Positions 320-43,601 are shown, numbered from the stretch's first letter. The stretch is 64,000 bases of DNA from Klebsiella pneumoniae (GCA_945865755.1 CAMBFS010000003.1:1-64000); one strand, 5' to 3'. Notes: generated by a model not told the origin, from the sequence alone. Numbers and translations are program-made.

Positions 320-1096
320 GTGAAAGAGAATATGAAGAGTTGGCAGAGTGCGACAGTGCTGGTTGGAATGATTGTGGGAATGCTCGTCGTGTCCACGCCA
401 CGAGCGTGGGCGCACGTCATCCCCCCAGACGCCCATTCGTTTGGCAAGTCGTATGGAGAATGGACTGCGGAATGGTGGAAATGGCACCTCAGTTTATCTG
501 CGTCCAACCATCCTGCTTTTAGTGTGGATGGCGCGAACTGTGGCGCTGGGCAATCAGGCAAGGTATGGTTTCTTAACGGCACCTTTACCACCGAGGTGCC
601 GGAAAATGCCTTTGCGACAATCGTACGCGAGTCGTGTACCATTCCAACCGGGAAAGCACTTTTCTTCCCGATTTTGAACGTCGATTGTTCGACCTTAGAA
701 GGAGATCCTTTCCATTTAGTGGAAGACGGACCAGATGCGAATGTCGATACATGTGCGGCAAGTTTCTTTGACGGTCCCATTGCGGTGGCTCACGACCTGA
801 CTATGACAATCGATGGCCAATCGCTGATAAACCCAGAGGCGTACCGTTTTCAGTCACCGGTGTTCGACTTTGCATTTTCCAATCCTGCCGACAACATTCT
901 TGGGGTAGATTGTAATATAGCAGACTGTGATAACGCTCGGGCAGTTTCCGATGGCTATTGGGTCATGGTTCCGCCTCTCTCGGCTGGCACTCACACGATC
1001 CGGTTTACGGGAAGTTTCAGGGACCCACAAACGAATGATCTGATTTTTGGGTTGGACGTGACGTATGAGTTGGCAGTAGTCGGTGGCCGCAAATAA
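320..1096 (+). CDS. secreted hypothetical protein (N-terminal signal peptide)
   Basis: ORF with GTG start 6 nt after AAAGGAG SD; hydrophobic signal-like N-terminus (…VLVGMIVGMLVVSTPRAWA); no recognisable catalytic motif. Confidence 0.55.
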   Translation: MKENMKSWQSATVLVGMIVGMLVVSTPRAWAHVIPPDAHSFGKSYGEWTAEWWKWHLSLSASNHPAFSVDGANCGAGQSGKVWFLNGTFTTEVPENAFATIVRESCTIPTGKALFFPILNVDCSTLEGDPFHLVEDGPDANVDTCAASFFDGPIAVAHDLTMTIDGQSLINPEAYRFQSPVFDFAFSNPADNILGVDCNIADCDNARAVSDGYWVMVPPLSAGTHTIRFTGSFRDPQTNDLIFGLDVTYELAVVGGRK

Positions 1097-1157
1097 CCAG
1101 ACTCATAATCTTGTTCAGACTCTTGTTCCACATTACTCACCGAAGGAGGAGTTACCA

Positions 1158-2816
1158 ATGAGGAGACATCACAAGTTATTCGGCTTAGTGCTCTGCGGCT
1201 TGATAAACGTAGCCAGCACTATTCATGCGGATGCTGGAGCAGAGCGCGGACAAGGCAAGGTTCCGAACCCTGCAATCGTCACCGACAGTGGACCCTTGAA
1301 AGGGCTCACCTCCACAACCATCAACAAATTTCTTGGTATTCCGTATGCTGTGCCACCAGTGGGGGATCTACGTTGGACGCCACCACAACCCTATGGCCGT
1401 TGGCACGGGCTTTTTGATGCGACCAAATTGAGGAGTGAGTGTCCACAGCTTAGTGACACAGGCGATTACTTGGGCAATGAAGATTGCCTGTTCTTGAATG
1501 TGTATACACCGGGCCTGAAGAAGAATCAGCACAAGCATGATGGGCTGCCGGTCATGGTGTGGATTCATGGGGGTTCACTGACCGGAGGCGCTGGTGGACG
1601 GTACGACCCCACGCCGTTGGTGGAAAAAGGCAACGTGATTGTCGTGACGATCAACTATCGGCTCGGCTTATTGGGTTTCTTCGCCCATCCAGCGATCGAT
1701 GCCGAAGGTCATCTTAATGGCAACTATGGCTTCATGGACCAGCAATTCGCGTTGCAGTGGGTGCAGCGAAACATTAAGGCCTTTGGTGGTGACCCTAAGC
1801 ACGTGACGATTTTCGGTGAATCCGCTGGTGGGCTGAGCGTCTATTCCCAGCTTGCATCACCAACCGCGGCCGGATTGTTCCACGGCGCGATTGCCCAGAG
1901 TGGCGCGTATGCCAGTTTTCAGCCCTACCTGCAGCGGATCGTGCCGATAGCACAAGCTGAAGTCCAAGGCTCCGATCTTATCCCCGGAGGTACGACTTTT
2001 GCCTCCTTGGTGGGATGCAGCGACGGCACCGCGCAATGCCTGCGCCATACGTCGGCTGTGGCACTGGCCTCTATTCCACTCCCATTCGGCGTCTATCCGT
2101 TTGTAGACGGAACCGTGTTGCCCTTGCCCCCAGGTGCGGCTTTTTTCAGTGGCCAGTTTAATCGTGTGCCAGTGGTCACCGGCTCAAATCGTGACGAATG
2201 GCGCTTGTATGTGGCGATAGGCTACGACTATGCCGGAAACCCGTTGACCGATGCAGGGTATCCGCAAGCGGTTGCGGACTTCGCTCTACTCCCGGTTACT
2301 GATCCCACCGTGCAACTGCTGGTGAATTTCCTGTATCCATTGAGCAATTATCCCCCACCCCCAGGACTCGTGAGTGGGGCACCGTTTGCACTGGGCGCGT
2401 TAGGAACCGCGGCTTTTTTCGCGTGCCCGGCGCGGAACGCCGCGCTGTTATTGTCACAGCATGTGCCAACATATGCGTATGAGTTCAACGATCCCAATGC
2501 GCCGCTCAGTTTTGGACTGCCTCCCGCGAGCTTTCCCTTGGGTTCGTATCATGCCTCCGAGATTCAATATCTCCTCAATGTGTTTGGCATACCATCGCCT
2601 TTCTCGCCCGACCAACGGCGACTCTCCGACGCGATGATTCGCTACTGGTCGCAGTTCGCGAGAACCGGCAACCCGAATGCCTCCGGCACCCCCGCGTGGT
2701 CACCGTACGGGGCGACGGATCAGTTCCAATCTCTCGTCGCACCGACGCCGACAGTCGAAGGCAGCTTTGATACTGTTCATAAGTGTTCGTTATTCTGGAG
2801 CGCAGCCGTACCGTAA
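1158..2816 (+). CDS. carboxylesterase, type B family (secreted)
   Basis: ATG at 1158 preceded by GAAGGAGG SD; signal peptide; GESAGG nucleophile-elbow motif and overall COesterase architecture (~550 aa). Confidence 0.85.
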   Translation: MRRHHKLFGLVLCGLINVASTIHADAGAERGQGKVPNPAIVTDSGPLKGLTSTTINKFLGIPYAVPPVGDLRWTPPQPYGRWHGLFDATKLRSECPQLSDTGDYLGNEDCLFLNVYTPGLKKNQHKHDGLPVMVWIHGGSLTGGAGGRYDPTPLVEKGNVIVVTINYRLGLLGFFAHPAIDAEGHLNGNYGFMDQQFALQWVQRNIKAFGGDPKHVTIFGESAGGLSVYSQLASPTAAGLFHGAIAQSGAYASFQPYLQRIVPIAQAEVQGSDLIPGGTTFASLVGCSDGTAQCLRHTSAVALASIPLPFGVYPFVDGTVLPLPPGAAFFSGQFNRVPVVTGSNRDEWRLYVAIGYDYAGNPLTDAGYPQAVADFALLPVTDPTVQLLVNFLYPLSNYPPPPGLVSGAPFALGALGTAAFFACPARNAALLLSQHVPTYAYEFNDPNAPLSFGLPPASFPLGSYHASEIQYLLNVFGIPSPFSPDQRRLSDAMIRYWSQFARTGNPNASGTPAWSPYGATDQFQSLVAPTPTVEGSFDTVHKCSLFWSAAVP

Positions 2817-2850
2817 GAACGGAGAACGGAGGGCACGAGCGGTCGTGCCC

Positions 2851-5800
2851 TCACATGCGTAACTCCTCCAACAACGCCTTCGCCTCCCGCAAATCCGCGG
2901 TATCAAATCCCTCGGTGAACCAGTTATAGACCTCGGATAACATCTGGTGAGCCTCCTGCTGCTTGCCTTGTTGTTGCCACAAGCGAGCTAAACTCATCGT
3001 CGCACGGAGTTCCCAGGACTTGGCGCTTTGCTGGCGAGCAATGGCGATGGCTTTGTGGAAACACTCCTCTGCCTCCGCCTGGGTGTTGGGTGCTAGGGGC
3101 TGGGGGCTGGGGTTTTCTAATTTTCGACTTTTGCTTTCCTGCGCTAGCAGGAGCTCGCCTTTGAGTTGATACAACTCCGCATCAAGCCAGCAGTTGCCGG
3201 TTTCGCGTGACAGGGTAAGCGCTTCTTCGGCGAGATCCAACGCTTCGTCAATGCGTCCGGCTTTCTCGTGAATTTCGATGGATAATGCCAACGAATACGC
3301 GAGCGATTGTTCGGCTCCTGAGGCACGAACCATCGCTACGTCCCGACATATTTGCGTAACGCCCTGCTCTGCATACCCAGTCTTGGCCAATCTCCACGCG
3401 CGAAAATGATTAGCAAGGGTGATGAGAAAGGCAAATCCTTGCTCTGTGGCCAATCCCTGAAACTCTTCTGCTGTTTCGCGGAGCGCCAGCTCATCGCCCC
3501 GCCATCGATGAGCCATGGTCGCGCCAAGGAGAGCGAATCCGAGGGTGAAAAGGTGCCCCTGCTGACGGGCAAGCGCCACTGCCGCTTGTGCTTTTTTCCA
3601 TGCTTGTTCTGGGTAGCCAGCGATCCATAGGGCTGCGGATAAAAGGGTGAGACACAATCCCCCGGGATCTTGCCCGTACAGAAAAGCGTGGTGCCGGTGT
3701 TGCCGTGGATCGTAGAGAGTCAACGCCTGGTCAAAAGAATGTCGACTGCCCAAGAGTTCTCCCTGAAAAAGTAGGATTTGGCCCAGAAATTTGTAGGCTT
3801 CCAGTAGAAGAACCGGGTTCTGCGTCTGTTGTGCCAGAGGGAGACTTCGTTCAATCAGGGTACGTGCAGTGCCGAGCTTTGCGCGTACCACATAGAATAT
3901 GGCCAAGCCATGTAACACCGGGAACAGATGGGGAGTGTTGCCGAGTTGTTCGCAAAGCGTATGCGCGCGTGAATAGGCCCGCTCCATCTCCACGGCGGCG
4001 AACCCCTTGACGTTCATGAACGCAGCCCCCAACGGCATCAATAAGCTTAACTCGAGGTGAATACGTTCCGGGCTGTCCGGGAGCTGCGTGAGGAGGTCCA
4101 GTGCGGTGGTGAGATGTCCAATTGCTTCTTGAGCCGCACTCCGTCCCAACGCGGTACGCCCCGCTTGGCCGTGATACTGCACGGCACGGGGATAGTCGCG
4201 GGCTTGCTCAAAGTGCACCGCTAAGGCTGCCGCAATCTCTTCTGCTCGGTCCCCGTACCCTTGCTCTAACCGCGCGCCAATCTGTTGATGGACCTGTAGT
4301 CGCTGACTCGGCGTCACCCGTTCATACAGCACGTCGTGATACAACGCATGGCGAAAACTGTAGCGGGCACTGGTCGTGCCATCGGGCCACTGGGTTGTGC
4401 CGGTGGCGCGCACAAAGTGCTCGCGGCGGGCGAGGTTGGCACAGTGCTCTTCGACCGTGGTGACGGAGAGCGCAAGACTGGGCGCAATGGTTGCTGCCGC
4501 GAACTCCATCCCCACCGCACTGGCCGTGACGAGTAGCTGGTGCTCGTCGGTACTGAGCTGATCAATCTGCCGCTCAATCATTTGCCGAATCGTCGCGGGG
4601 ACACTGAGCGACGCGTGGCTCCCCTCCTCACTCGTCGTGGCGTGACGCAGCAGGAGATCCTCGACGACGTTGACCATGAACAAAGGGTTGCCACTGGTGC
4701 GGTGGTGAATCGTGCGGGCGAGCGGTTGTAGGGGCATGGCCCGGATCGCCAGATACTCCTCTACCGTAGCCTCGGTCAGGAGCGGCACTGGCAGTTCGAC
4801 ACTGTGGCGATGAAGGGCCAAGTCCTGGGTTAATGTCCGCAGGGGATGGCCATTGCCGAGCACTTCCATGGGCCGATAGGTGCCGAGCACCAAGAGCCGC
4901 GCGGGGTGTCGCCGCCGCGCCAGGAACGAGAGGGCATCCAGGGTCGAGGGATCACTCCAGTGCAAGTCTTCCAGCGTCAGGACCAGGACGGTGTCCCGCG
5001 TCAGGGCTTCGAGGCCCTCGGCCAACTCCCGGAGCATCCGCTCGCGGGTGGCCCCAAAGGTGTGGACCTGCAACGCCGCCCGATCCGCCGGAGTGGCTAA
5101 CGCGGACAACTGCATCAACCACGTCGGCGCGTACTGCCGCAACGTCGTCACCAGGCGGTCTTGCGCTGGGCCACGGCCGAGTTCCCCCAACGCCGCGAGC
5201 AGCGGCAGATAGGGTTCGCCAGGGCCGAACTGCTCGATGCACTGGCCCTGGGCAAGCCAGGGGTTGGGGGTCAGGGGTCGGGGATCGGGGGTTGGAGACA
5301 GTTCGGAGTTCGGGGTTCGGAGTTGAGGACCTGGAATCTTGGACTTTGGATTCGTGTTGACTCCGAACGGTTCATGACTCTGTACTCCGAACACAAAGGC
5401 ATCGAGGAGCGCGGTCTTGCCAATCCCCGGCTCGCCGGTGACGAAAACAATCTGGCGTTCACCGCTCCGGGCTTTCTCGAGGAGTTGGTGGAGGTGCGAG
5501 AGTTCGGCGGCTCGTCCGACCAGGGGAGGTGCTGGGTGTTGGGGGCTAGGGGCTGGTTCGAATGTTGGACCTTGGACCTTCGACCTTGGACCTTGGACTG
5601 GGCCGATAAACCGAAACCCGCGTCGATGCACCGTCTCGAGGTACTGCGGCGCACGGGCACTGTCACCGAACACACGACGCAGTTCGCGGATACACACGGT
5701 CAGGGCCGCTTCGCTCACAATCGTGCTCGGCCACACGCTCCGCAGGAGTTCCTCTTTGGTCACCACTTGCCCTGGGCGGGCAAGCAAGTACCGCAGCACG

Positions 5801-5904
5801 GCAAAGGCTTTGGGCGTGACCCGCAGCTCGTGGGCGTCGTTGTGGATGGTGTGATTGTCCCAATCCACGCGGAAGGGGCCAAAGTCGACTGTTTCTGAAG
5901 CCAT
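2851..5904 (-). CDS. transcriptional regulator paralog 1: OmpR/PhoB-type winged helix + STAND (NB-ARC/AAA_16) ATPase + TPR array
   Basis: N-terminal trans_reg_C-like wHTH (…LRVTPKAFAVLRYL…RRGFRF); Walker A GEPGIGKT; Walker B LVLEDLHWSD; long TPR region; conserved C-terminal cap …VYNWFTEGFDTADL…; ATG at 5904 7 nt after AAGGGAG SD (GTG at 5907 also possible). Confidence 0.85.
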   Translation of the reverse strand: MASETVDFGPFRVDWDNHTIHNDAHELRVTPKAFAVLRYLLARPGQVVTKEELLRSVWPSTIVSEAALTVCIRELRRVFGDSARAPQYLETVHRRGFRFIGPVQGPRSKVQGPTFEPAPSPQHPAPPLVGRAAELSHLHQLLEKARSGERQIVFVTGEPGIGKTALLDAFVFGVQSHEPFGVNTNPKSKIPGPQLRTPNSELSPTPDPRPLTPNPWLAQGQCIEQFGPGEPYLPLLAALGELGRGPAQDRLVTTLRQYAPTWLMQLSALATPADRAALQVHTFGATRERMLRELAEGLEALTRDTVLVLTLEDLHWSDPSTLDALSFLARRRHPARLLVLGTYRPMEVLGNGHPLRTLTQDLALHRHSVELPVPLLTEATVEEYLAIRAMPLQPLARTIHHRTSGNPLFMVNVVEDLLLRHATTSEEGSHASLSVPATIRQMIERQIDQLSTDEHQLLVTASAVGMEFAAATIAPSLALSVTTVEEHCANLARREHFVRATGTTQWPDGTTSARYSFRHALYHDVLYERVTPSQRLQVHQQIGARLEQGYGDRAEEIAAALAVHFEQARDYPRAVQYHGQAGRTALGRSAAQEAIGHLTTALDLLTQLPDSPERIHLELSLLMPLGAAFMNVKGFAAVEMERAYSRAHTLCEQLGNTPHLFPVLHGLAIFYVVRAKLGTARTLIERSLPLAQQTQNPVLLLEAYKFLGQILLFQGELLGSRHSFDQALTLYDPRQHRHHAFLYGQDPGGLCLTLLSAALWIAGYPEQAWKKAQAAVALARQQGHLFTLGFALLGATMAHRWRGDELALRETAEEFQGLATEQGFAFLITLANHFRAWRLAKTGYAEQGVTQICRDVAMVRASGAEQSLAYSLALSIEIHEKAGRIDEALDLAEEALTLSRETGNCWLDAELYQLKGELLLAQESKSRKLENPSPQPLAPNTQAEAEECFHKAIAIARQQSAKSWELRATMSLARLWQQQGKQQEAHQMLSEVYNWFTEGFDTADLREAKALLEELRM

Positions 5905-6282
5905 CACTGTGCTCCCTTAGAAAAATCTTAGAACTTCCTTAGAACTCTCTCAGGACTTCGACTGAGACTCGTGCTTATCTCACAGCATATTCTTGTCGGC
6001 AAGGGAGAAAGGGGGAGGTATGCAAGTGGGCCGAGATTGAATTCTTCGCGAATCGCGATGGGCAGTCAGAAGATGAGTTGGTGGTCGCCGCCTTCAGAGG
6101 AGGTGATGTCCTATGAAATAGCTGGAGCGAAAAGGCGAACGGCGCGAGGGGAATGAAACCAAGATCAACGGTCAGTTCACTAAGGTGTTCCTAGTGTGAT
6201 CAGCGTAGGGAAGGATAAGGATCACGCTTAGTTCTGAACGAAGACAAAATTTTTGCACTCATATTTATGAGAGGAGGACAAT

Positions 6283-7740
6283 ATGAAGCAATTGATGAGG
6301 AGTGTGGTACTCACGATCGGTTGTGGAACTGTGTTGTTGATAGGTGCCGACGGGTGGGCGGCGGAGGCTCTGTCTCCTGTGGTCTCATCGGCCACCCCAC
6401 CAGAGCCCATAGGCGACGTCCGCCAAGACATCGCCTGGGTGCAGGCGGTGGCGAATCACCCGACAGTGCCGGGCGATAAGACGTATTCCTTGCGCGATGC
6501 GACTACAGGCTTGGGGTGGGCCTTTCCTCCCCGTGTCGTGCAAGGGTTTCTGGAACAAGAAGTCGACCACCTCTTTGTTGCTCCACCAACGCGGTATGAG
6601 GCCACTCCAGCGTACCGAGCCGCGACAGAAACCAATAGTGGCCGCGCGCGCGTGCGGGTAGACAGTGAGCCATACGGCCAACTGGTGGAGGAGGTGGAGG
6701 GCAAATTGGTTCCTTACAAGCCAGAAGGGCTGCCGTTTCCAGACATTTCACCCACGGATCCCCAAGCCGCGCGGAAGATTATCCATAATTTCGTCCATGC
6801 CGATCGCGGTGGTGGACGGGCCGCGCTCGAGTTCTATGTCTATGTGCTAGGGGAGGGAAGCGGCGTCCTGGCGCAAGAGCAGACTGTCCCCAGCGGGTTT
6901 ACGCCAATCTGGACCGACCAGGCTCACGGGACGGTTGTGCGACGGCTCGGCATGGACATGGTGTACGCGCAGCTGGAGCGGGAAAAGAACGCGGCCGAGC
7001 TGTGGAAGTTTCGCTTTGACTTCTTCGATCCACCCGACATGAAAGACAATAAAATGGTGGCGATTCGGTTCGTCAATCCCGTGGAGCGGGAACGGGGGGT
7101 CATGTATATGCGAGAAACGCGCAAGGCAACGGCAGCGGCGATGCCCAAGAAGCATGAGTTGTTCGCAGGCACCCACTATCCGCTCGATGCGTTCTACGGC
7201 TGGGAGGGCCACGAATACTACTGGCGCTTTCAGCTCGTCGGTGAGGTGCTCGTGCCCACGGTCGCGGACAGCAAGCTGCTCCATCCGCGCTTTACCGGGC
7301 GGTGGGGGAGCATTCCCGACAACACGGACAACTGGGAACTGCGGCGGTCATTTGTCGTGCTCGCCCAATCGCGTGAGCCGGAGAACAGATGGCCCTATCG
7401 GCTGCTGTTTTTTGATGCGGAGATGCAGCTTGTGAACATGACCATGCTCTACGATAAGGACGGACAATTTTACGGGGTTCACCAACCGATTCATTTTCAG
7501 GACTCGGCGACAGGATTACCTTTGTTTGCTGGCATGACGTTGCGGCTGCGGAACAAACCGGAATCCACCGTAGTCGTCTGGCATCGCGAGCGGATGATGG
7601 TGACCGAGAATACGCCCGCCAAGCTGCATTTGTTTAGCACTGCCAGTTTGCTGGCCGGAGAAACTATTCGTGGGTATCTCGGGAGTGCTGGCTATCTCAC
7701 ACGTAACGCAACTGAGACAGCAACGATGTCGATAAAGTGA
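6283..7740 (+). CDS. secreted hypothetical protein
   Basis: GAGGAGG SD; signal peptide (MKQLMRSVVLTIGCGTVLLIGADGWAAEA); 485 aa, no motif I can name with confidence. Confidence 0.55.
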   Translation: MKQLMRSVVLTIGCGTVLLIGADGWAAEALSPVVSSATPPEPIGDVRQDIAWVQAVANHPTVPGDKTYSLRDATTGLGWAFPPRVVQGFLEQEVDHLFVAPPTRYEATPAYRAATETNSGRARVRVDSEPYGQLVEEVEGKLVPYKPEGLPFPDISPTDPQAARKIIHNFVHADRGGGRAALEFYVYVLGEGSGVLAQEQTVPSGFTPIWTDQAHGTVVRRLGMDMVYAQLEREKNAAELWKFRFDFFDPPDMKDNKMVAIRFVNPVERERGVMYMRETRKATAAAMPKKHELFAGTHYPLDAFYGWEGHEYYWRFQLVGEVLVPTVADSKLLHPRFTGRWGSIPDNTDNWELRRSFVVLAQSREPENRWPYRLLFFDAEMQLVNMTMLYDKDGQFYGVHQPIHFQDSATGLPLFAGMTLRLRNKPESTVVVWHRERMMVTENTPAKLHLFSTASLLAGETIRGYLGSAGYLTRNATETATMSIK

Positions 7741-7747
7741 GGAGGAC

Positions 7748-8087
7748 TCTATTGATCTCGGTGGCAATGCCGTCGGCATAGACACCAGTATTGCCACCGA
7801 CAGCAGTGGCCATGCCTACATTACCGGACTGACCCTATCGAGCAATTTTCCGCTCGTGGAAGTGCGCGACGGACTGGACAACGACTGCGATGGCCAGACC
7901 GACGAAGGGGGGCAGACCATTTTCTATCACGATGGCGATGGTGACGGGCATGGGGACTCCGCCAACTCAACCCAAGCGTGCCGTGCTCCGAATCAACACC
8001 AAGCCGCTGACGGTAGGTCACACGTATGTCTATCGGATCAGTCTGGACGATGGGTCGTTCAGTAACTTCCAGTTTGGCTTGAAGTAG
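7748..8087 (+). pseudogene. start-less remnant of a secreted beta-propeller (SBBP-like 'YITGLTLSSNFP') / MopE-like metal-binding-motif protein (DGLDNDCDGQTDEG…YHDGDGDGHGD), frame-disrupted
   Basis: protein-like translation begins immediately after stop of 6283..7740 without start codon; motif fragments only; two frames needed to reach stop at 8087. Confidence 0.3.
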
Positions 8088-8092
8088 CAGAA

Positions 8093-8128
8093 AGAGAGTC
8101 GGGTGGGTTATGACCCACCCGACTCTCT
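8093..8128 (+). terminator. 15-bp perfect-stem hairpin (AGAGAGTCGGGTGGG / CCCACCCGACTCTCT) after the remnant ORF
   Basis: perfect inverted repeat with 6-nt loop directly downstream of stop at 8087; no clear U-tract. Confidence 0.35.
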
Positions 8129-8160
8129 CTTGAGCCGCGGTAAACCCGGACTACGTCTGG

Positions 8161-8550
8161 TTATGGGGACCAAGGCAGTCTCATCTCGTCTTCCGCATGG
8201 AGTCGCCAAACCGAAAGGCCAACCTGCGAGACTTGCACGACATTCCCCAGGCGTTTCGCTTGAGTATGAAACAGTGGAGAGCGCAGAAAGCGGCGGACAA
8301 AAAGTGCTGCCTCGGTTTTTTTGACGGCAAGATAGACGAGGCAGTAGCGGGTGTGACATAGCCGACGATTGTAAAAATCCGCATCACGAGTGAAAAACGT
8401 GGGTCGTCGTAAGTGGAGGAGAAAGGGTATGATCTCTTCATCCGGCATGCCTCTTCTTCCTATATCATAGCCCACGTGACGAATAGGAATCCGCCAACCT
8501 CGTAAGAGCAGCCGCTGATCGGCGACAATGTTTTCATCCAAGACGTTCAC
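8161..8550 (-). CDS. DUF5615 / Mut7-C PIN-like domain protein (putative toxin partner of DUF433)
   Basis: N-terminal VLDENI…HVGYDIGRRGMPDEEI… pattern typical of DUF5615; 4-bp overlap with upstream DUF433 gene. Confidence 0.5.
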   Translation of the reverse strand: MNVLDENIVADQRLLLRGWRIPIRHVGYDIGRRGMPDEEIIPFLLHLRRPTFFTRDADFYNRRLCHTRYCLVYLAVKKTEAALFVRRFLRSPLFHTQAKRLGNVVQVSQVGLSVWRLHAEDEMRLPWSP

Positions 8551-8837
8551 GCGGCTGTCGATTCGATGACAAACTCATCGGCATGTTTGAGTAATGCGCG
8601 GGCAGCAAGTTGTACCGCCTCGGCGATCGCCTCCTCGGTAATGGCGCCGTCCCATTGCGTAATAATCGTTTCCCAGGCTAATCCTTCCGCTACTTGTTCT
8701 AATACGTCGGCAACAAAGATGCGTGTCCCGCGAAATGTCAGCTTCCCGTGACAGATGCGGGGATCAGCGACAATATAGCGCCCAACTTGATATGTGCTTG
8801 TCCGTTTTTTCATACGCTTTGCTCCAATACTGAGCAA
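8547..8837 (-). CDS. DUF433 domain protein (putative antitoxin-like partner)
   Basis: YQVGRYIVADPRICHGKLTFRGTRIFVADVLEQV matches DUF433 core; likely start at internal MKKRTS (8813). Confidence 0.6.
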   Translation of the reverse strand: MLSIGAKRMKKRTSTYQVGRYIVADPRICHGKLTFRGTRIFVADVLEQVAEGLAWETIITQWDGAITEEAIAEAVQLAARALLKHADEFVIESTAA

Positions 8838-8921
8838 AAAGCTTACGGCAAAAGTGCGCGGAAAGAAATCTGGTAATCATGGGCAGGTGTCAACCCGTCA
8901 CTCACTCGCTGACTCAATCTC

Positions 8922-11726
8922 TCACTGGCTCAATGCTACAAGCAACGCCTTCGCGTCCTGCAAATCCGCGGTATCAAATCCCTCGGTGAACCAGTTATAG
9001 GCCTCGGATAACATCAGGTGAGCCTCGTGCTGCTTGCCTTGTTGTTGCCACAAGCGAGCTAAACTCATCGTCGCGCGGAGTTCCCAGGACTTGGCGCTTT
9101 GCTGGCGGGCGATGGCGATGGCTTTGTGGAAACACTCCTCCGCTTCCGCCTGGGTGTTGGGTGCTAGGGGCTGGGGGCTGGGGTTTTCTAATTTTTGACT
9201 TTTGCTTTTTGACTTTTGACTTTTGCTTTCCTGCGCCAGTAGGAGTTCGCCTTTGAGTCGATACAACTCCGCCTCATACGACCGCTCTCCAGTCTGCTCT
9301 AAAGCAGCGAGCGCTTGCGTAATCGTTGTCAGTGCCTCCGAAATCTTCCCCGCCTTACTATACGCATCTGCCAGGAAAGAGAGCAGAACAGGTTCAAGGA
9401 CTCTAAACCCTACTGCCGAAAAGAGATCAAGCGCCTGACGAATCTGTGTGATGCCTTCTACGGTTTTCCCTTGTTGCGCGTCTAGCCATCCTTGATGCAG
9501 TGTTGCGACCGTGACATAGGCCGGGATGCTTTGTTCTTGGGCAACGGTAGTTAGTTCCCGTTGCCCCTCCTCTACCGCCTGCCCTTCTCTCCGAAAAATG
9601 GACAGGGTCATCGCCGTGCTTAACGTTCCAAGCAGTGAAAGGGCATGCGACGTTTCCCTGGCTAGGGAAAGGGCTTCTTGAGTTCTTTTGCTTGCTTGAT
9701 CTGGATATCCCAGAGTCCATAATACGGCAGCGGTATAGGTGAGGCAGAAGACGCCAGGTTCATGGCCATAGAGAAAGGTATGTCCACGGTGTTGTTGTGG
9801 GTTATAGAGACGGAGCCCACCCTCTAAATGAGTCTGAGCCGAATGTTGATCTCCGATATGATGGAGCACATGGCCCCTGGAGCGGTGCGCTTCGAGCAAG
9901 AGGCTAGGCTCCTGGAAGCGCACCGCGAGAGTGAGGCACTGCTCACTGAGTGATAACGCGACTGAGAATTGCCCTCGTACGACATGGTAGACGACCAAAC
10001 CCAGCAGGATGGGAAAGATGTGGGGCGAATCCTCTAGCTCTTCACACAATGTTCGGGCACGAAAATAAGCCCGTTCCACTTCAGGAACGCTGTAGCCTTT
10101 AGCGTTCATCACCGCGACGCCCAGTGCCATTTGCAGGGGCAATTCTTGTTGGTTGCGTTCAACCGAGGCTGGAAGATGGTTGAGGAGATCGAGCGCCGTC
10201 GTCAGATGTACGCTCGCCTCCTGTGACGCGTTACGACGTAAGGCGCTCTGTCCAGCCACCCCGTGATACCGCACGGCACGGGGATAGTCGCGGGCTTGCT
10301 CAAAGTGCCCGGCTAAGGCCGCGGCAATCTCTTCCGCGCGGTCCCCGTACCCTTGCTCTAATCGCTCGCCAATCTGTTGATGTACTTGGAGCCGCCGACT
10401 CGGCGTCACCCGTTCATAGAGCACGTCGTGATACAACGCATGGCGAAAACTGTAGCGGGCACTGGTCGTGCCATCGGGCCACTGCGTTGTACCGGTGGCG
10501 CGCACAAAGTGCTCGCGGCGGGCGAGGCTGGCACAGTGCTCTTCGACCGTGGTGACGGAGCGCGCAAGACTGGGCGCAATGGTGGCCGCCGCGAACTCCG
10601 TCCCCACCGCACTGGCCGTGACGAGTAGCTGGTGCTCGTCGGTACTGAGCTGATCAATCTGCCGTTCGAGCATCTGCCGAATCGTCGCGGGGACATTGAG
10701 CGGAGCCTGGGCTGGGCCGTCATTCGTGGCGGGACCATGCAGGAGTAAGTCCTCGACGACGTTGACCATAAACAGCGGATTGCCACTGGTGCGGTGGTGA
10801 ATCGTGCGAGCGAGCGGTTGCAGGGGCCTTGCCCGGATCGCCAGATACTCCGCTACCGCGGCCTCGGTCAGGAGCGGCACGGGCAGTTCAACACTGTGGC
10901 GATGAATGGCCAAGTCTTGGGTTAATGTCCGCAGGGGATGGCCATTGCCGAGCACTTCCGTGGGCCGATAGGTGCCGAGCACCAAGAGCCGCGCGGGGTG
11001 TCGCCGCCGCGCCAGGAACGAGAGGGCATCCTGGGTCGAAGGATCACTCCAGTGCAAGTCCTCCAGCGTCAGTATCAGGACGGTGTCCCGCGTCAGGGCT
11101 TCGAGGCCCTCGGCCAACTCCCGGAGCATCCGCTCGCGGGTGGCCCCAAAGGTGTGGACCTGCAACGCCGCCCGATCCGCCGGAGTGGCTAACGCGGACA
11201 ACTGCATTAACCACGTCGGCGCGTACTGCCGCAACGTCGTCACCAGGCGGTCTTGCGTTGGGCCACGGCCGAGTTCCCCGAACGCCGCGAGCAGCGGCAG
11301 ATAGGGTTCACCGGGGCCGAACTGCTCGATGCACTGGCCGTGCGCGATGAAGACCGGTGCGCGGGGCTGGGGGTTTGGGGCCGAAGAAGACAAGGACTGA
11401 GGACTGCGGGCTGAGGACTGCGGGCCGGAGACCTTTGCCTTTTGCGGGTCGCTTTTCTTCTCGGTCCCGGACTCCGGCCACAAAGACCTCAAGCAGGGAG
11501 GTCTTGCCGATCCCCGGCTCACCCGTGACAAAGACAATCTGGCGTTCGCCATCCAGGGCTTTCTCCAACCGGCCATGAAGTTGTTCCAGCTCGGACGCAC
11601 GCCCCACCAGATTGGGGGCGGGGTCAAATGTTGGACTTGGGACCTTCGACCTTGGACTTGGGACTGGGCCGATAAACCGAAACCCGCGCCGATGCACCGT
11701 CTCGATGTACCGCGGGGTACGGGCAC
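8922..11726 (-). CDS. regulator paralog 2 (wHTH+STAND+TPR), C-terminal reading frame; homologous sequence begins ~11354 (…VFIAHGQCIEQFGPGEPYLPLL…)
   Basis: ~95% nt identity to paralog 1 over the NB-ARC remainder and over the last ~330 bp; divergent TPR middle; first ~125 codons of this ORF overlap the other frame and are probably not translated. Confidence 0.6.
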   Translation of the reverse strand: MPVPRGTSRRCIGAGFGLSAQSQVQGRRSQVQHLTPPPIWWGVRPSWNNFMAGWRKPWMANARLSLSRVSRGSARPPCLRSLWPESGTEKKSDPQKAKVSGPQSSARSPQSLSSSAPNPQPRAPVFIAHGQCIEQFGPGEPYLPLLAAFGELGRGPTQDRLVTTLRQYAPTWLMQLSALATPADRAALQVHTFGATRERMLRELAEGLEALTRDTVLILTLEDLHWSDPSTQDALSFLARRRHPARLLVLGTYRPTEVLGNGHPLRTLTQDLAIHRHSVELPVPLLTEAAVAEYLAIRARPLQPLARTIHHRTSGNPLFMVNVVEDLLLHGPATNDGPAQAPLNVPATIRQMLERQIDQLSTDEHQLLVTASAVGTEFAAATIAPSLARSVTTVEEHCASLARREHFVRATGTTQWPDGTTSARYSFRHALYHDVLYERVTPSRRLQVHQQIGERLEQGYGDRAEEIAAALAGHFEQARDYPRAVRYHGVAGQSALRRNASQEASVHLTTALDLLNHLPASVERNQQELPLQMALGVAVMNAKGYSVPEVERAYFRARTLCEELEDSPHIFPILLGLVVYHVVRGQFSVALSLSEQCLTLAVRFQEPSLLLEAHRSRGHVLHHIGDQHSAQTHLEGGLRLYNPQQHRGHTFLYGHEPGVFCLTYTAAVLWTLGYPDQASKRTQEALSLARETSHALSLLGTLSTAMTLSIFRREGQAVEEGQRELTTVAQEQSIPAYVTVATLHQGWLDAQQGKTVEGITQIRQALDLFSAVGFRVLEPVLLSFLADAYSKAGKISEALTTITQALAALEQTGERSYEAELYRLKGELLLAQESKSQKSKSKSQKLENPSPQPLAPNTQAEAEECFHKAIAIARQQSAKSWELRATMSLARLWQQQGKQHEAHLMLSEAYNWFTEGFDTADLQDAKALLVALSQ

Positions 11727-11970
11727 TATCCCCCAAAACCCGGCGGAGTTCCCGGATACACACCGTCAACGCCGCGTCGCTCACAATCGTGCTCGGCCAC
11801 ACGGTGAGCAGGAGTTCCTCTTTGGTCGCCACTTGCCCTGGGCGGGCAAGCAGATACCGCAGCACGGCAAAGGCTTTGGGCGTGACCCGCAGCTCGTGGG
11901 CGTCGTCGCGGAGGGTGTGACTCTGGAGGTCGACGCGAAAATGTCCAAATGCGACCGTCTCTGGCGTCAT
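11308..11970 (-). CDS. regulator paralog 2, N-terminal reading frame (OmpR-type wHTH + Walker A GEPGIGKT), terminating inside repeat linker
   Basis: near-identical to N-terminus of paralog 1; ATG at 11970 after GAGGAAA SD; frame is lost relative to the downstream ORF in the GGACTGAGGACTGCGGGCT repeat tract (~11390-11445). Confidence 0.6.
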   Translation of the reverse strand: MTPETVAFGHFRVDLQSHTLRDDAHELRVTPKAFAVLRYLLARPGQVATKEELLLTVWPSTIVSDAALTVCIRELRRVLGDSARTPRYIETVHRRGFRFIGPVPSPRSKVPSPTFDPAPNLVGRASELEQLHGRLEKALDGERQIVFVTGEPGIGKTSLLEVFVAGVRDREEKRPAKGKGLRPAVLSPQSSVLVFFGPKPPAPRTGLHRARPVHRAVRPR

Positions 11971-12205
11971 CAGTTTCCTCACTCTTAGAGAAATCGTAAC
12001 CGTTCACGGGGATAAAAACCTTAATGAATTAGGATATTTACAAAATTGAAATTCGTAAAATTGGACATGTTTTGGCCAGTTTCGATAACGATTGATAGGC
12101 AAAAACAAGCAAATTCAGGTAGTTATACGTCTATGGCATCGATACCCCTCGTGAACGGTTACGCTTGGCTATGCCTACAAGTATGGAGCGGATCCGGCTC
12201 ATGGT

Positions 12206-12997
12206 GTGCCGAGCAACTTTCACTCCGAGTTGGCCTCCGCGTCACTGGCCTTAAGCGTGGCCTACTCTCTCACGTCGAAGCTCCATCTGGGTGTCGCACT
12301 GAACCCCGCGTATGGACGACTGCGACTGAAAACCCCTTCTCCAGCGGGACGCATCGATGTTGATGTCCGTGGTCCTGGTGTGTTCGGTACTATTGGCGTG
12401 CTGTACCAACCGACTACGCGGCTCAGCCTTGGTGTTACCTATAAGACACCTGGCACCTTATTTCTCTTTGGCAATGCCCGCGTGGCTGGGCGTGGCGATG
12501 ACGCAACCGCGGAGTATCAATTCCCACAGTCCGTGACTGTGGGTGCGGCATACCGTGTCACGTCACGCTTGACTGTTGTCGGACAAGGCCGCTGGACAGA
12601 GTTCTCCGCATTTGAAGATTCGCATGTCGATTTCGAGCAGCGCACGTTCCTCAACCAACCTGCTGCCTCGGGGGTCCACGATCGCTTCCGTTTAGGTGGC
12701 GGGGTGCAGTATGAAGTGTGGCCGGGGATCACTGCTCGTGCCGGGATTTCCTGGGAGCGGGCTGCGATCCGCTCGTCAGCAATGGCACCAGCATTATCTG
12801 ACTTCACCGACATCTTGTTTCCTTTTGGCCTCGGCTTTGAGCACAGACCGTGGCGGGTGAATGTACTCGGTGGGGTGTCGTCTGTCTCCAGCCGGAAGAT
12901 CTCACCGGCGCGGAATCAGTTCTTCCCCGGTCGTTATGAATTCAACATTTCTGCGATGGGGATTGAGGTGACGCGATTGTTGGGCGAGGCGAACTAA
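12206..12997 (+). pseudogene. 5'-truncated FadL/TodX-family outer-membrane beta-barrel (C-terminal ~260 aa only)
   Basis: beta-strand-rich alternating pattern, ends in aromatic-containing C-terminus; no signal peptide/hatch domain; AT-rich non-coding sequence upstream. Confidence 0.35.
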
Positions 12998-15153: not shown

Positions 15154-16326
15154 ATGACATTGCCGCTCGCGCATATTCGTGTGATTGATCTCACCCGCGC
15201 CCGCTCTGGCCCTACCTGTGTCCGCCAACTCGCCGATATGGGAGCCGAGGTGATTAAAGTGGAACAAGCCGATGATGAAGAAGGCGTCAGTCGTCATAAT
15301 TCCGATTTCCAGAATCTCCATCGTAATAAACGGAGTATGGTACTGAACTTGAAGGACCCCCGTGGGGTAGCCATTCTCAAACAACTGGTGAAGAACGCCG
15401 ATGTGGTGGTCGAGAATTATCGCCCAGATGTGAAAAAGCGCTTGGGGATTGCATACGAGGACCTCCGCCCGCTCAATCCGCGCTTGGTGTATGCCAGCAT
15501 TTCAGGGTTTGGGCAGACGGGACCTTACCAGGATCGTCCTGGCTACGATCAGATCGCCCAGGGCATGGGTGGCCTTATGAGTATTACCGGCCAACCGGGG
15601 AGTGGGCCGTGGCGGGTGGGGATTCCCGTGGCGGACCTCAGTGCCGGGCTGTTCGCGGCCCAAGGGGTTCTCGTCGCTTTGCTGGAACGTGAACGTTCAG
15701 GTGAAGGACAGTGGGTGCGCACCTCGCTCTTGGAGGCGATGATCGCCATGCTCGATTTTCAAGCGACACGCTGGTTGATGGACAAGGAAGTCCCACCCCA
15801 AGCCGGGAACAATCATCCCACGAGCATTCCCACTGGCACGTTCCGCGCCAAGGATGGGTACCTCAATATCGCCGCCGGTGGACAACACATGTGGAAACGG
15901 GTGTGCGCGGCGCTGGAGATACCGGAACAGTATGAGGACCCACGCTTCGCCACGGCGGGGAAGCGCTCGAAGAACCGTGACGCGCTGACCGTGGTGCTCG
16001 AAGAAAAGCTCCACACGAAAACGGTTGCTGAATGGGTGGAGATTCTCAACGCCGCTGGGGTGCCTACGGGGCCGATTCTGAGCATTGACCAAGTCTTCGC
16101 CAATGAGCAGGTGCGGCATCTGGGTCTCGCGACGCGGCTCTCGCATCCCCAGCTTGGAATGATCGAGGTGTTAGGACTCCCAACGACACTCAGCCGTACC
16201 CCCGGAGCGGTGCGAACGCCAGCCCCGGAAAAGGGTGAGCATACGGAAGCGGTTCTGCGCGAGTTGGGCATGAGTGGAGAGGAGATTGAGCACCTGCGTG
16301 TCGCTGGAGTTGTCGCGGAACGGTAG
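15154..16326 (+). CDS. CoA-transferase family III (CaiB/BaiF/Frc-like)
   Basis: IRVIDLTRARSGPTCVRQLADMGAEVIKVE N-terminal signature; ~390 aa. Confidence 0.85.
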   Translation: MTLPLAHIRVIDLTRARSGPTCVRQLADMGAEVIKVEQADDEEGVSRHNSDFQNLHRNKRSMVLNLKDPRGVAILKQLVKNADVVVENYRPDVKKRLGIAYEDLRPLNPRLVYASISGFGQTGPYQDRPGYDQIAQGMGGLMSITGQPGSGPWRVGIPVADLSAGLFAAQGVLVALLERERSGEGQWVRTSLLEAMIAMLDFQATRWLMDKEVPPQAGNNHPTSIPTGTFRAKDGYLNIAAGGQHMWKRVCAALEIPEQYEDPRFATAGKRSKNRDALTVVLEEKLHTKTVAEWVEILNAAGVPTGPILSIDQVFANEQVRHLGLATRLSHPQLGMIEVLGLPTTLSRTPGAVRTPAPEKGEHTEAVLRELGMSGEEIEHLRVAGVVAER

Positions 16327-20364: not shown

Positions 20365-20638
20365 GAAGGGGAGTTGGGGGCAGTTGAAGGCAGTTGGGGA
20401 CAGTTTAGGGCAGTTGGGGACAGTTTAGGGCAGTTGGAGGCAGTTTAGGGCAGTTAGGGACAGTCGGGAACAGTGCTCAGTCCCTCAAGCCCTTGTTGTT
20501 CTAACTCCGAAATCCCAACTGCCTTCAACTGCCCTGAACTGTTTTCAACTGCCCCTAACTGCTTTCAACTGTCCCCAACTGTCCCCAACTGTCCCCAACT
20601 GCCCCCAACTGCCCCCAAGCCCCCAAGCCCCCAACTGT
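20365..20638. repeat. intergenic inverted tandem arrays: ~10 x GCAGTTGRRG then ~12 x CYYCAACTGC (reverse complements), filling the entire gap between two stop codons
   Basis: direct reading: cagttgggggcagttgaaggcagttgggga… then …caactgccttcaactgccctgaactg…ccccaactgtccccaactg. Confidence 0.8.
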
Positions 20639-21862
20639 CTACCTCCGTTCTTCCCGCAACACCCCATCCTCTCGTAGTTTCTGTATGTCCGCCGCAGTTC
20701 GCCCCAGGTAATGGGTCAGGACTTCTTCGTTATGCTGTCCCAGTGTCGGCGCGGTGAGCGGTAGCTCTTCGGGGAATTCCGAAAACTTCAACGGGAACCC
20801 CGGCACATCAAATTCTCCGTCATGGGTGGGATCGGAAATCGTCCGCACAGTGCCCCGCGCACGGAGATGTGGATGGCTCAGTGTGTCCTCGACCGACAGC
20901 ACGGGAGCCACCGGCACGTTGAACCGCTCCATCTGGGCCACCGCGCTCGGGACGTCAGGAAACGTGTGCAACCAATCTTCGATCAATTTGACGACTTCGT
21001 CGCGCCGTTCGAGGCGCACGAGATCGGTCTTATAACGCGGGTCCTCAATCAAGTCGGGCCGGTCCATCGCTCGACACAAGTCCGGCCAATGGTGGAAGAA
21101 ACTCATAATCACCACGTGTCCACCAGTCGCGCGAAACACACCACCTGGACACAAGTAGGTCATGTGGCGGCCCACGCGCGTCGGTTTGATCTTCCCGCCA
21201 CTGGCTTTGACCTGATGCACGTTCACTTCATGGAAGTTGTAGTAGACATCAAGGAGCGCCACATCGAGATGCTGCCCGCGCCCCGTGCGGTCGCGATGGC
21301 GTAGCGCGGCCAGCACCGCGAGCGCCCCATGCACGCCGGTACTCACATCCCCAAGCCCCACTAACGGAATATAGGGTGCCTCGTCTTTGTCCCCAATCAT
21401 TGAGGTGACCCCGGCGTAGGCTTGGGCGATGTAGTCATAACCAGGCTTGTGCGCCAGCGGGCCGGTCTGTCCCAACGCGGAAATGGAACAGAGAATGATA
21501 TTCGGCTTGAGGGCTTTGAGCCGCTCGTAATCCAGCCCCATTTCCGCCATTACGCCGGGCTTGAAGTTTTCCACCACGACATCGACTTGCTGCACCAGCT
21601 CAGCAATCAGCGCCATGCCACGCGGGTCGCGCAGATTCACGCAGACACTTTTCTTGCCACGATTGTGCTGCACGAAGAAGACACTACGTCGATTGCGAAA
21701 GACGGACGCGCCGCGACTCAAATCCCCATGCGGCGCGGATTCCACCTTAATCACGTCCGCCCCCATCTCGGCGAGCATTCGTGAACACGTCGGTCCCGCC
21801 AACGCCCGCGTGAAATCAAGGACGCGCAGGCCCGTCAGACAATGGTTCATTCCTTCATTCAT
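20639..21862 (-). CDS. CoA-transferase family III (CaiB/BaiF-like)
   Basis: LRVLDFTRALAGPTCSRMLAEMGADVIKVE signature; 407 aa. Confidence 0.85.
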   Translation of the reverse strand: MNEGMNHCLTGLRVLDFTRALAGPTCSRMLAEMGADVIKVESAPHGDLSRGASVFRNRRSVFFVQHNRGKKSVCVNLRDPRGMALIAELVQQVDVVVENFKPGVMAEMGLDYERLKALKPNIILCSISALGQTGPLAHKPGYDYIAQAYAGVTSMIGDKDEAPYIPLVGLGDVSTGVHGALAVLAALRHRDRTGRGQHLDVALLDVYYNFHEVNVHQVKASGGKIKPTRVGRHMTYLCPGGVFRATGGHVVIMSFFHHWPDLCRAMDRPDLIEDPRYKTDLVRLERRDEVVKLIEDWLHTFPDVPSAVAQMERFNVPVAPVLSVEDTLSHPHLRARGTVRTISDPTHDGEFDVPGFPLKFSEFPEELPLTAPTLGQHNEEVLTHYLGRTAADIQKLREDGVLREERR

Positions 21863-29820: not shown

Positions 29821-30025
29821 GCAATGGCATTAAGTTAAGCCGAAGCGTCACTGCTCGCTGCGAGCCGGGGGTAAAACCCCCGGCTACCATCCACAGCCCC
29901 TCCGGGGCTGATCGACACACCCCAGCGGGGTGTTTGGAGGGTAGCCAGGGGTAGGACTCCTGGCGAATGGCGGCGAGGGGGCAGCTTCCAGCATAACAAA
30001 AACTCCCTTAACTTAATGCCATTGC
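29821..30025. mobile_element. MITE-like element copy B (205 bp) inserted in loop of a 40-bp palindromic element with perfect 8-bp TSD CCGGATGG
   Basis: same TIRs as copy A (opposite orientation); flanks …tccctctcccggatgg | element | ccggatgggagagggtcagggtgaggggg. Confidence 0.75.
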
Positions 30026-30027
30026 CC

Positions 30028-30057
30028 GGATGGGAGAGGGTCAGGGTGAGGGGGAGC
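30028..30057. repeat. right half of REP-like palindromic element R1 split by MITE copy B (left half 29803..29820)
   Basis: removing element plus one TSD copy restores TCCCTCTCCCGGATGGGAGAGGGTCAGGGTGAGGGGG. Confidence 0.65.
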
Positions 30058-30106: not shown

Positions 30107-30466
30107 TCATGTGCTTGCCAAAAGTGCATACTCGGCATTTTTATTGATGGTGTTCGCTTCCGCGGTTGCGCGCGCTAACCGGCGGTCTAGTTCCGTGACA
30201 ATGTCGGCATTGCCCGCCTGCGCGATTTTAATTTCGACCGTTCCTCCCGCTAATACTTGGTGCAACGCTTCCAGGACTGGCTTGAGGTCGGGATTCACGG
30301 CGATATTGCCCAGTGCCCCTTCCAGAGCCCCCAACTGCAGCAATCGCATCTGGTAGGCATAGCCGTTCGCGGTGGTCTCGCGGGTCACCAGTTTTGGGAC
30401 TCCGACTTCAATAAGGTTCTCCTGAGCGATCTCCATATATTCCGTGTGGGCTGCTGCGTAACTCAT
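30107..30466 (-). CDS. hypothetical small protein (119 aa), divergent from regulator paralog 3
   Basis: ORF with good coding look; no assignable motif. Confidence 0.4.
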   Translation of the reverse strand: MSYAAAHTEYMEIAQENLIEVGVPKLVTRETTANGYAYQMRLLQLGALEGALGNIAVNPDLKPVLEALHQVLAGGTVEIKIAQAGNADIVTELDRRLARATAEANTINKNAEYALLAST

Positions 30467-30674
30467 GATGTGCTTCTCCTTTTCTGCGGTAAAATGTTTC
30501 TGCTTTCACAAACTCAGCGGCGATGATCTGTTGTCTCTTGTTGAAAAGCAGGGTAGGAGGAGCGGCGGTTCAATGGGAGGTGCGAAGCATTCGGATTTAT
30601 GTTCATATTGTTTAGCTTGTGTTCCCCTCGGGCCATTTCGGCGATATTGCCGACCGAGCACTGGAGGTTTAGCC

Positions 30675-43592: not shown

Positions 43593-43601
43593 AACCGTTC
43601 C

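Follow-up and report, generated by a model that had tools for sequence, protein, structure and literature searches.

Domain-restricted mosaic identity between two neighbouring wHTH-STAND-TPR regulator genes, probably shaped by gene conversion around a diverged sensor block

Results

Two paralogous regulator genes with a mosaic identity profile

The stretch of Klebsiella pneumoniae DNA analysed here (GCA_945865755.1 CAMBFS010000003.1:1-64000; 64,000 nucleotides (nt), hereafter the window, to which all coordinates refer unless another locus is named) contains three genes for paralogous regulators composed of a winged helix-turn-helix domain, a STAND NTPase and tetratricopeptide repeats (wHTH-STAND-TPR): P1, P2 and P3. 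P1 (2851..5904, minus strand) is an intact open reading frame (ORF) of 1017 codons with an alternative GTG start at 5907, and was found at 100% identity in another assembly (L097). P2 (8922..11970, or to 11982, also minus strand) is a paralog of P1 disrupted by one frameshift, a lesion overlooked in a preliminary description of the window. P3 (30675..33764, plus strand; ORF 30465-33764, likely start 30675) is the more distant third paralog that the same description had recognised: its amino acid (aa) identity to P1 and P2 is 36-52%, it has no nucleotide similarity to either gene, and it has neither the heptamer insert nor the TTCTAAG element described below.

The identity profile of P1 and P2 (global nucleotide alignment, 100-nt windows) is sharply mosaic: 83-94% at gene nt 50-300, 50-70% at 300-650, 90-99% at 650-1200, ~74% around nt 1250, 87-97% at 1300-1700, 34-61% at 1750-2750, and 94-97% over the last ~290 nt. 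Counted in codons of P1, nucleotide identity is 90% in the wHTH (codons 18-103), 73% in codons 104-176, 53% in a low-complexity insert (177-217), 96% in 218-395, 79% in 396-440 and 94% in 441-578. The TPR sensor block, which occupies 3160..4170 in P1 (aa 579-915) and 9252..10262 in P2, both on the minus strand, follows with ~50% nucleotide and 43% aa identity; it is the segment of P1 not homogenised with P2. Beyond it, the conserved 3′ block of P1 encoding the C-terminal capping helices (2866..3184, minus strand) is homogenised with P2 8936-9276; its conserved portion, 2866-3137 plus a 59-nt piece, has 92-95% identity. The TPR blocks of P1, P2 and P3 are each exactly 337 codons long and align without gaps, P1 and P2 each showing only 36-37% aa identity to P3. 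The three blocks are one and the same module, anciently diverged, and not modules of a different kind.

This mosaic is real and statistically solid, far beyond chance: the two genes are identical over runs of up to 132 nt, whereas 10,000 permutations gave no run longer than 59, and a two-breakpoint maximum chi-square scan reached 476 where the permutations did not exceed 19, with breakpoints at P1 positions 4171 and 3179 and differing sites making up 49.4% inside and 12.9% outside them. The preliminary picture of two same-strand paralogs with a mosaic profile is borne out by the alignment, the permutations and the maximum chi-square, and the sliding-window comparison that it proposed revealed an abrupt drop at the TPR boundaries and not a uniform divergence. 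Its figures need amending: the ~95% identity given for the wHTH/NTPase half holds for codons 218-395 and 441-578, the remainder being a patchwork of 53-90%; the C-terminal block put at ~330 bp is indeed highly similar and is about 290 nt long; and the TPR region, given as ~40% identical, is strongly diverged at the somewhat higher values reported above.

The similarity does not extend beyond the genes. Self-BLAST of the window limited it to positions 2866-5854 of P1, that is, to the interior of the coding sequence (CDS), from about codon 18 to five codons before the stop, and found nothing common to P1 and P2 on the promoter side or in the 3′ flank. The pair had been described as ~3-kb direct repeats; only ~1.9 kb per copy is truly repeated and the flanks are unrelated.

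Synonymous divergence and the ages of the blocks

Nei-Gojobori estimates of synonymous divergence (dS) between P1 and P2 vary strongly along the gene (P1 codon numbering): 0.26 in the wHTH (codons 18-103), 0.93 in codons 104-176, saturation in the insert (177-217), 0.095 in codons 218-395, 0.49 in 396-440, 0.21 in 441-578, saturation again in the TPR block (579-915; proportion of synonymous differences, pS, 0.82) and 0.22 at the C-terminus (916-1017). This heterogeneity indicates segments of different ages, and since the saturated TPR block stands beside blocks with a dS of 0.1-0.25, selection on the protein cannot be the cause of the contrast.

The P1 TPR block has a close counterpart in a metagenome-assembled genome (MAG), 'Deltaproteobacteria bacterium S-RSF-IL-11', which represents the species of the window in the genome collection and was the sole close relative recovered by a genome scan; identity to the gene of this MAG (L002, on the same contig as locus L004) is 96% at the nucleotide level. 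The dN/dS of the P1 TPR block against L004 is 0.26, a comparison between two genomes, which argues that the P1 sensor is functional and under purifying selection. In the same comparison the C-terminal 100 codons of L004 are unusually diverged from P1 (dS 0.39). GC content at third codon positions (GC3) is 0.76-0.78 in the homogenised parts of P1 and P2 and 0.54-0.57 in their TPR blocks, a gap of 0.19-0.22, against only 0.10-0.12 in P3 and in the two homologs P0003 and P0004 introduced below; this is a weak hint of GC-biased gene conversion.

Discordant relationships of the NTPase and TPR parts

Of the 120 homologs in the family alignment (P0003-P0120), two that stem from other metagenomes, P0003 (locus L015) and P0004 (L016), are the nearest to the TPR block of P2. 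Both are collinear with P2 over its full length, with 65-70% identity in the wHTH, 67-69% in the NTPase and 66% and 65%, respectively, in the TPR block, where P1 shares only 42-43% with them. In the tree of the NTPase and helical arm, P1 and P2 group together with a bootstrap of 100, and this pair groups with (P0003,P0004), again at 100; in the TPR tree, P2, P0003 and P0004 form a clade supported at 100 with P1 outside it, as sister to the clade at 97. The comparison of NTPase and TPR trees that had been suggested thus gave discordant topologies. Because of the TPR tree and of a neighbouring gene that P2 shares with P0004 (see below), P1 and P2 split before P2 parted from P0003 and P0004, and it follows that the near-identity of P1 and P2 outside the TPR block is secondary.

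When 1.84 billion cluster representatives were searched exhaustively by HMMER, with the P1 TPR block as the query, nothing above 47% identity was returned, and P2 ranked ninth, at 43%. A word-indexed search with the P2 TPR block yielded partial proteins only, at no more than 48% identity, and did not recover P0003 or P0004; in a JGI metagenome scan with the same query nothing was closer than 48%.

Median identity across the family is 42% for the TPR part and 54% for the NTPase. Mosaic pairs are frequent in it: NTPase identity exceeds TPR identity by more than 0.2 in 403 pairs among the 120 homologs, and the most extreme of these pairs is P1/P2. The motifs around the two breakpoints, Y577-A594 and E908-L920, are nearly invariant family-wide. 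Two further pairs with uneven modules were observed: P0008/P0043 (NTPase 97%, TPR 56%, wHTH 60%) and P0031/P0116 (NTPase 86%, TPR 47%, wHTH 92%). Exchange module by module may be a general feature of the wHTH-STAND-TPR family.

State of P2 and the heptanucleotide repeats

P2 consists of two overlapping ORFs, one encoding the wHTH and Walker A (11308-11982) and the other the remainder (8922-11726, equal to the protein P0002). The frameshift lies in the low-complexity NTPase insert, in a heptanucleotide tract at 11390..11425 (minus strand) that can be read as AGGACTG x4 or, by TRF, as a perfect 14-mer x2.1 at 11393-11425. Removing 7 nt or adding 14 nt at this tract restores an ORF of 1013 or 1020 codons, from the ATG at 11970 to the stop at 8922, and no second lesion was found in the ~1,016 codons of P2. 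The tract is base-for-base identical in L003, the sole other copy and hence a very limited sampling; no variation in tract length was seen in this only comparison. P2 was probably inactivated recently and is decaying, given the frameshift together with the truncated upstream element and the truncated neighbour described below; the frameshift and the degraded locus weaken the idea of two working regulators.

Repeats of this kind are genome-wide and not peculiar to the P1/P2 locus. Period-7 arrays dominate the list of tandem repeats in the window, which holds four perfect heptanucleotide arrays of at least 3 copies where none is expected. In P1 and P2 the heptamers encode the wHTH-NTPase linker, the NTPase insert and an insert before the C-terminal cap, regions predicted to be disordered in the AlphaFold model (residues 106-125, 179-210 and ~930-940), and two of the P1/P2 indels measure exactly 21 nt, three repeat units. 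In-frame tracts also occur in the genes for prolyl-tRNA synthetase (ProRS; 42514-42576) and an ABC-F protein (35567-35591); further tracts lie at 5260-5324, 5528-5598, 9150-9229, 3079-3112, 37310-37339 and 37445-37545, and the window also has a CTGACTA x14 array between genes. In another MAG, a homolog (L006, 466-497) carries a heptamer tract in the same linker. The heptamer repeats had pointed to a cyanobacterial origin, which was rejected since the closest genome is a MAG labelled Deltaproteobacteria.

Architecture of the P1 protein

The P1 and P2 proteins are wHTH-STAND-TPR regulators. In P1, the OmpR-type wHTH (5605..5826, minus strand; aa 27-100) is identified by Pfam Trans_reg_C (68.9 bits, cut-off 26.2) and by sequence matches to PDB entries (1p2f, 5ju7 (CadC), 8b4b (ToxR), PhoB and OmpR); the same PDB search gave no match outside the wHTH. 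The NTPase (4885..5523, minus strand; aa 128-340) is an AAA_16 domain (72.1 bits, cut-off 32.6), with the Walker A motif GEPGIGKT and a Walker B-like LVLTLEDLHWSD; residues G157-T164 of Walker A and E312-D313 are invariant in 68 homologs. The NB-ARC label used earlier for this domain does not hold: NB-ARC (PF00931) scores 17.7 bits, under its cut-off of 23.5, and NACHT is also below cut-off. The insert within the NTPase (5254..5376, minus strand; aa 177-217), built of heptanucleotide repeats, is predicted to be disordered (pLDDT below 50 at residues 179-210) and is missing from P3. TPR_12 scores 45.9 bits; TPR_MalT reaches 34.6 bits, under its cut-off of 45, and there is no LuxR-type HTH, which places P1 outside the MalT/LAL group. 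No BTAD domain was found by Pfam, and with 28.7 bits P1 falls far short of the 1430 required by the NCBIfam AfsR model. PADLOC matched no defence-system family in P1 or P3, which leaves them outside the anti-phage STAND/Avs proteins. The best NCBIfam match of the protein body is TIGR03903, with 276 bits over profile positions 601-1266, where the cut-off is 706.

An AlphaFold model of P1 built on the 68 homologs (pLDDT 87.7) has as its best Foldseek match in the PDB chain 6mfv_A, a STAND ATPase whose sensor is a TPR domain (E 1.4e-10, 804 aligned columns), with a TM score of 0.55 normalised on the target and a sequence identity of ~12%. By analogy with the STAND class, P1 would oligomerise in a ligand-triggered and nucleotide-dependent manner. 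P1, P2 and P0003 have the same recognition helix, EAALTVCIRELRR; that of P3 is different. The earlier proposal that the two paralogs keep the same DNA-binding output is plausible from these identical helices, with the reservation that P2 is frameshifted.

The family is very large: of the candidates that were scored, 6,565 matched at E <1e-10. Many of the matches belong to MAGs with the label Deltaproteobacteria or Binatia, and in some a cyclase takes the place of the wHTH. When P1, with either of its starts, and P0002 were looked up as exact sequences, no match was obtained, and no prior description of mosaicism in the wHTH-STAND-TPR family was found in the literature.

A candidate operator and the neighbouring genes

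Thirteen nt upstream of the P1 start lies an operator-like element (5916..5955, minus strand) of TTCTAAG heptads in an 11-nt phase, with three perfect or near-perfect phased matches against 0.05 expected. The same element is found in L015 at three places (5202-5241, 5505-5533 and 10612-10640), one of them just upstream of P0003, and in L016 (4984-5012), ~20 nt upstream of P0004; the four-heptad element of P1 and the sequence upstream of P0003 are 95% identical over 44 nt. Upstream of P2 only the last heptad is left (GATTTCTCTAAG, 11984..11995, minus strand). OmpR-family regulators and the Streptomyces antibiotic regulatory proteins (SARPs) are known to prefer phased direct repeats, the SARPs binding heptameric direct repeats spaced 11 nt apart, the same phase as that of the TTCTAAG repeats. 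On account of this preference, we infer that the TTCTAAG repeats are a candidate operator bound by the wHTH. The element is conserved across organisms that share the recognition helix, and P3, which has a different helix, does not have it. A sigma-70 scan of the region upstream of P1 found no promoter.

Divergent from P2 lies a gene for a TodX/FadL outer-membrane transporter (12164..12982, plus strand) that is truncated at its 5′ end: it matches residues 123-395 of a 399-aa protein of L016 with 89% aa identity, the first ~122 codons being missing, and Pfam Toluene_X aligns over profile positions 135-369 only. A divergent TodX/FadL neighbour is common to P2 and P0004. Probably a deletion removed the promoter region shared by P2 and this gene.

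Between the two paralogs, a gene for a DUF1329 protein (6283..7740, plus strand) diverges from P1, and downstream of P2 a DUF433 gene (8547-8837, minus strand) and a weakly DUF5615-like gene (8161-8550, minus strand; 17 bits, below cut-off) form a toxin-antitoxin-like pair. On the other side, a carboxylesterase gene (1083..2816, plus strand) is convergent with P1. Its ortholog in L015 (3283-5052; 81% aa identity) is divergent from P0003, so that the relative arrangement of the regulator and its putative target has changed between the window and L015.

The P1 locus in sibling assemblies and in L004

The P1 locus is present in three sibling MEGAHIT assemblies, as L097 (ERZ27280224), L001 (ERZ27280310) and L003 (ERZ27280297). 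L097 is identical to window positions 1851-6904. L001 equals the window except at P1 ~4350-4999, where it is P2-type at 56/56 informative sites; L003 is P2-type at 144/144 informative sites over ~5150-5799, the frameshifted tract included. The switch points in L001 and L003 coincide with the longest identical P1/P2 runs (132, 65, 52 and 49 nt). This P2-type sequence in the P1 locus reflects either conversion that is still going on or chimerism introduced by assembly; that P1 and P2 share no identical run of at least 141 nt speaks somewhat against chimeras at the final k.

In L004 (S-RSF-IL-11), a gene with a P1-type TPR block is followed by other genes than in the window: a PIN toxin-antitoxin pair, an amidohydrolase and HpaB. 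A 132-nt island (window 7992-8123, L004 3210-3341), 92% identical and beginning with the perfect hairpin GTCGGGTGGGT-CATA-ACCCACCCGAC, sits 800 nt downstream of P2 and of the P1-type gene of L004, with a different toxin-antitoxin pair between gene and island in each genome. The island and the diverged C-terminus of the L004 gene are further signs of exchange among family members. The possibility that L004 is a simple deletion product between P2 and P1 was ruled out, its downstream region containing neither the carboxylesterase nor the toxin-antitoxin pair of the window.

Other repeats and paralogs of the window

Two genes of CoA-transferase family III (20639-21862 and 21895-23115, both minus strand) share 71.6% nucleotide identity over 947 nt, roughly uniformly, and a third CoA-transferase gene lies at 15154-16326. 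Two 10/20-nt tandem arrays (AGGGCAGTTG...) at 20367-20464 and 20514-20637 are inverted and form a long imperfect intergenic palindrome. Interspersed repeats of 30-120 nt with 87-97% identity (23251-23374/43409-43532; 45464-45527/60490-60551; 29996-30055 and 43533-43610) are intergenic in the window and also occur in contigs of the related MAG (L004 and L012).

Discussion

The reading that we favour, with a probability of roughly 0.6, is that P1 and P2 are old neighbouring paralogs whose non-sensor parts have been repeatedly homogenised by domain-restricted gene conversion, and that P2 is now decaying. Repeated conversion is suggested by the confinement of the similarity to the interior of the CDS, by the several block ages and by the discordant trees; clustered near-identical tracts, discordant topologies and unequal synonymous divergence, three marks of gene conversion, are present. 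Several events of different ages would have affected the wHTH, most of the NTPase and helical arm, and the C-terminal capping helices, while the 337-codon TPR block would never have been overwritten, or the overwritten copies would have been lost, resulting in a near-identical DNA-binding and ATPase scaffold carrying anciently diverged sensors. The conversion tracts would end where the family is most conserved, the near-invariant breakpoint motifs making even diverged paralogs identical enough there for recombination to start or stop. A slip of one repeat unit in the heptanucleotide tract would have shifted the frame of P2 which, though most likely non-functional, would remain a recombination partner for P1. 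As for the regulator itself, by analogy with MalT and the PH0952-type STAND proteins, binding of a ligand to the TPR block probably releases autoinhibition, after which the NTPase would oligomerise and the wHTH domains would attach to the TTCTAAG repeats, phased at 11 nt, that precede the regulator genes. Of the preliminary interpretation, recombination between the copies, as opposed to uniform divergence, stands on the mosaic and the discordant trees; a recent segmental duplication does not agree with the unrelated flanks, the saturated synonymous sites of the TPR block and the collinear relatives of P2 elsewhere; and a swapped sensor module can count as a rival reading at most, the TPR blocks being collinear and that of P1 being sister to the P2 clade.

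Several points weigh against gene conversion between old paralogs. The trees were made by neighbour-joining only, and all the close sequences come from metagenome assemblies, so that L001 and L003 may be assembler chimeras. Neither the alignment of 120 homologs nor the HMMER search contained an ortholog combining a P1-type TPR block with a distinct N-terminus of its own, and in a polarity test with P0003 and P0004 as outgroups, derived changes were not in excess in P1 or in P2. Two sequences do not reveal in which direction, or how often, conversion took place. Finally, P1 adjoins a carboxylesterase gene whose ortholog neighbours P0003, which has a P2-type TPR block, an arrangement that a replacement of the TPR block fits equally well.

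Such a replacement, in which a P2-type gene was recently duplicated and the copy received its TPR block from a distant unsampled paralog, is doubtful. It would account for a scaffold that in both genes belongs to the P2/P0003/P0004 lineage, for the absence of relatives of the P1 TPR block above 47% identity, for the position of P1 beside the carboxylesterase gene and behind the same four-heptad element as P0003, and for the P1-type TPR gene of L004 in another genomic context. It predicts a single age for the non-TPR parts, whereas their dS ranges from 0.095 to 0.93; no duplicated flank is visible, the similarity being confined to the CDS; two crossovers would be required with a donor only ~45% identical; and the P1 TPR block branches immediately outside the P2 clade (97%), where an old local duplicate would be expected. 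A recent duplication of the whole gene, after which only the TPR block diverged adaptively and very fast, is hardly credible, even though the TPR is the most variable part of the family, since it is refuted by the synonymous saturation (pS 0.82 against a flanking dS of 0.1-0.25); moreover, the P2 block resembles proteins of other organisms more than it does the P1 block, and the P1 block evolves under purifying selection.

A very improbable explanation is that the mosaic, the frameshift or both arose in the metagenome assembly of two similar loci or strains. The source contig belongs to a MAG, the sibling contigs are MEGAHIT k141 products, the repeat tracts are error-prone, and L001 and L003 switch exactly at the longest identical runs, as graph chimeras would. 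Both copies are nevertheless part of a single contig of 65,385 nt, in which the sequence that separates and surrounds them is unique; P1 with 1 kb of flank on each side recurs at 100% in a 29,951-nt contig of another assembly; exact P1/P2 runs stay below 141 nt; the frameshifted tract is the same in L003; and chimerism shuffles blocks, which cannot yield a contrast of 43% against 92% identity. It is also improbable that P2 is a phase-variable or silent copy, switched on and off by slippage of its tract and donating sequence to P1. The sole lesion can be repaired by one repeat-unit step, the two other indels amount to three units each, P2-type blocks occur in the P1 locus of L001 and L003, and P2 shows no excess of derived amino acid changes; against this, the tract is short (~4 units), imperfect and of the same length in L003, the only other copy, the truncated upstream element and TodX neighbour suggest decay and not regulation, and heptamer tracts in housekeeping genes such as that for ProRS argue that the tract is not a device specific to this locus. 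Extended to a sensor-cassette system, in which a silent, slippage-switchable P2 would exchange blocks with an expressed P1 by frequent conversion, the idea is decidedly improbable. If it were true, the population would hold varied combinations of scaffold and sensor, a programmed variation of signal specificity resembling pilE/pilS but for an intracellular STAND receptor, and the P2-type blocks of the two sibling assemblies would be snapshots of it.

Gene conversion in part of a gene, as favoured here for P1 and P2, is a known kind of process, found in this case in an uncharacterised wHTH-STAND-TPR family. Gene conversion among the tpr paralogs of Treponema and diversity-enhancing evolution of fungal NLR proteins have been described (PMC3656149, PMC13449251), and P1/P2 resemble these cases, plant NLR clusters and duplicated tuf genes in the conversion of part of the gene with a diverse recognition region. 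Unlike the NLR and tpr cases, P1 and P2 are bacterial STAND-TPR transcription regulators, the sensor is under purifying and not diversifying selection, and one partner is broken. The P2 tract likewise recalls simple-sequence-repeat contingency loci, such as the heptanucleotide repeats at Haemophilus HMW1A (PMC8262952), in that its unit is not a multiple of three and is positioned so that a one-unit slip alters expression; it differs from them in being short and imperfect, in showing no length polymorphism (L003) and in having similar tracts in housekeeping genes.

In its architecture, P1 resembles the clade of PH0952 (Pyrococcus horikoshii, 6mfv) and MalT, with a P-loop NTPase, a helical arm and a C-terminal TPR superhelix, but MalT has a C-terminal LuxR HTH effector and P1 an N-terminal OmpR-type wHTH. 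P1 shares with AfsR and the large SARPs of actinomycetes the order of OmpR-type wHTH, STAND NTPase and TPR, and differs from them in lacking the BTAD domain and in having an AAA_16 and not an NB-ARC NTPase. The ATPase and TPR body is homologous to that of the TIGR03903 TOMM kinase/cyclase fusion proteins and of cyclase-AAA_16-TPR proteins; unlike the TIGR03903 proteins, P1 has no kinase or cyclase domain and scores far under the cut-off.

A lead in its own right is offered by the in-gene heptanucleotide repeats, which give rise to disordered linkers and can disrupt a gene when they slip by one unit. For annotation, the pair is a caution that '95% identical paralogs' may mask an ancient divergence of the sensors and a dead copy. 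For a very large family (>6,500 database matches), the analysis provides predictions: TTCTAAG is a candidate operator, and the genes for TodX/FadL, DUF1329 and the carboxylesterase are candidate targets, which would point to the uptake or hydrolysis of hydrophobic compounds. P1 and P2 would represent a clean bacterial case of domain-restricted concerted evolution in a receptor-like regulator, parallel to the NLR clusters of eukaryotes, in which the output and engine modules are interchangeable between paralogs and the sensor modules stay distinct.

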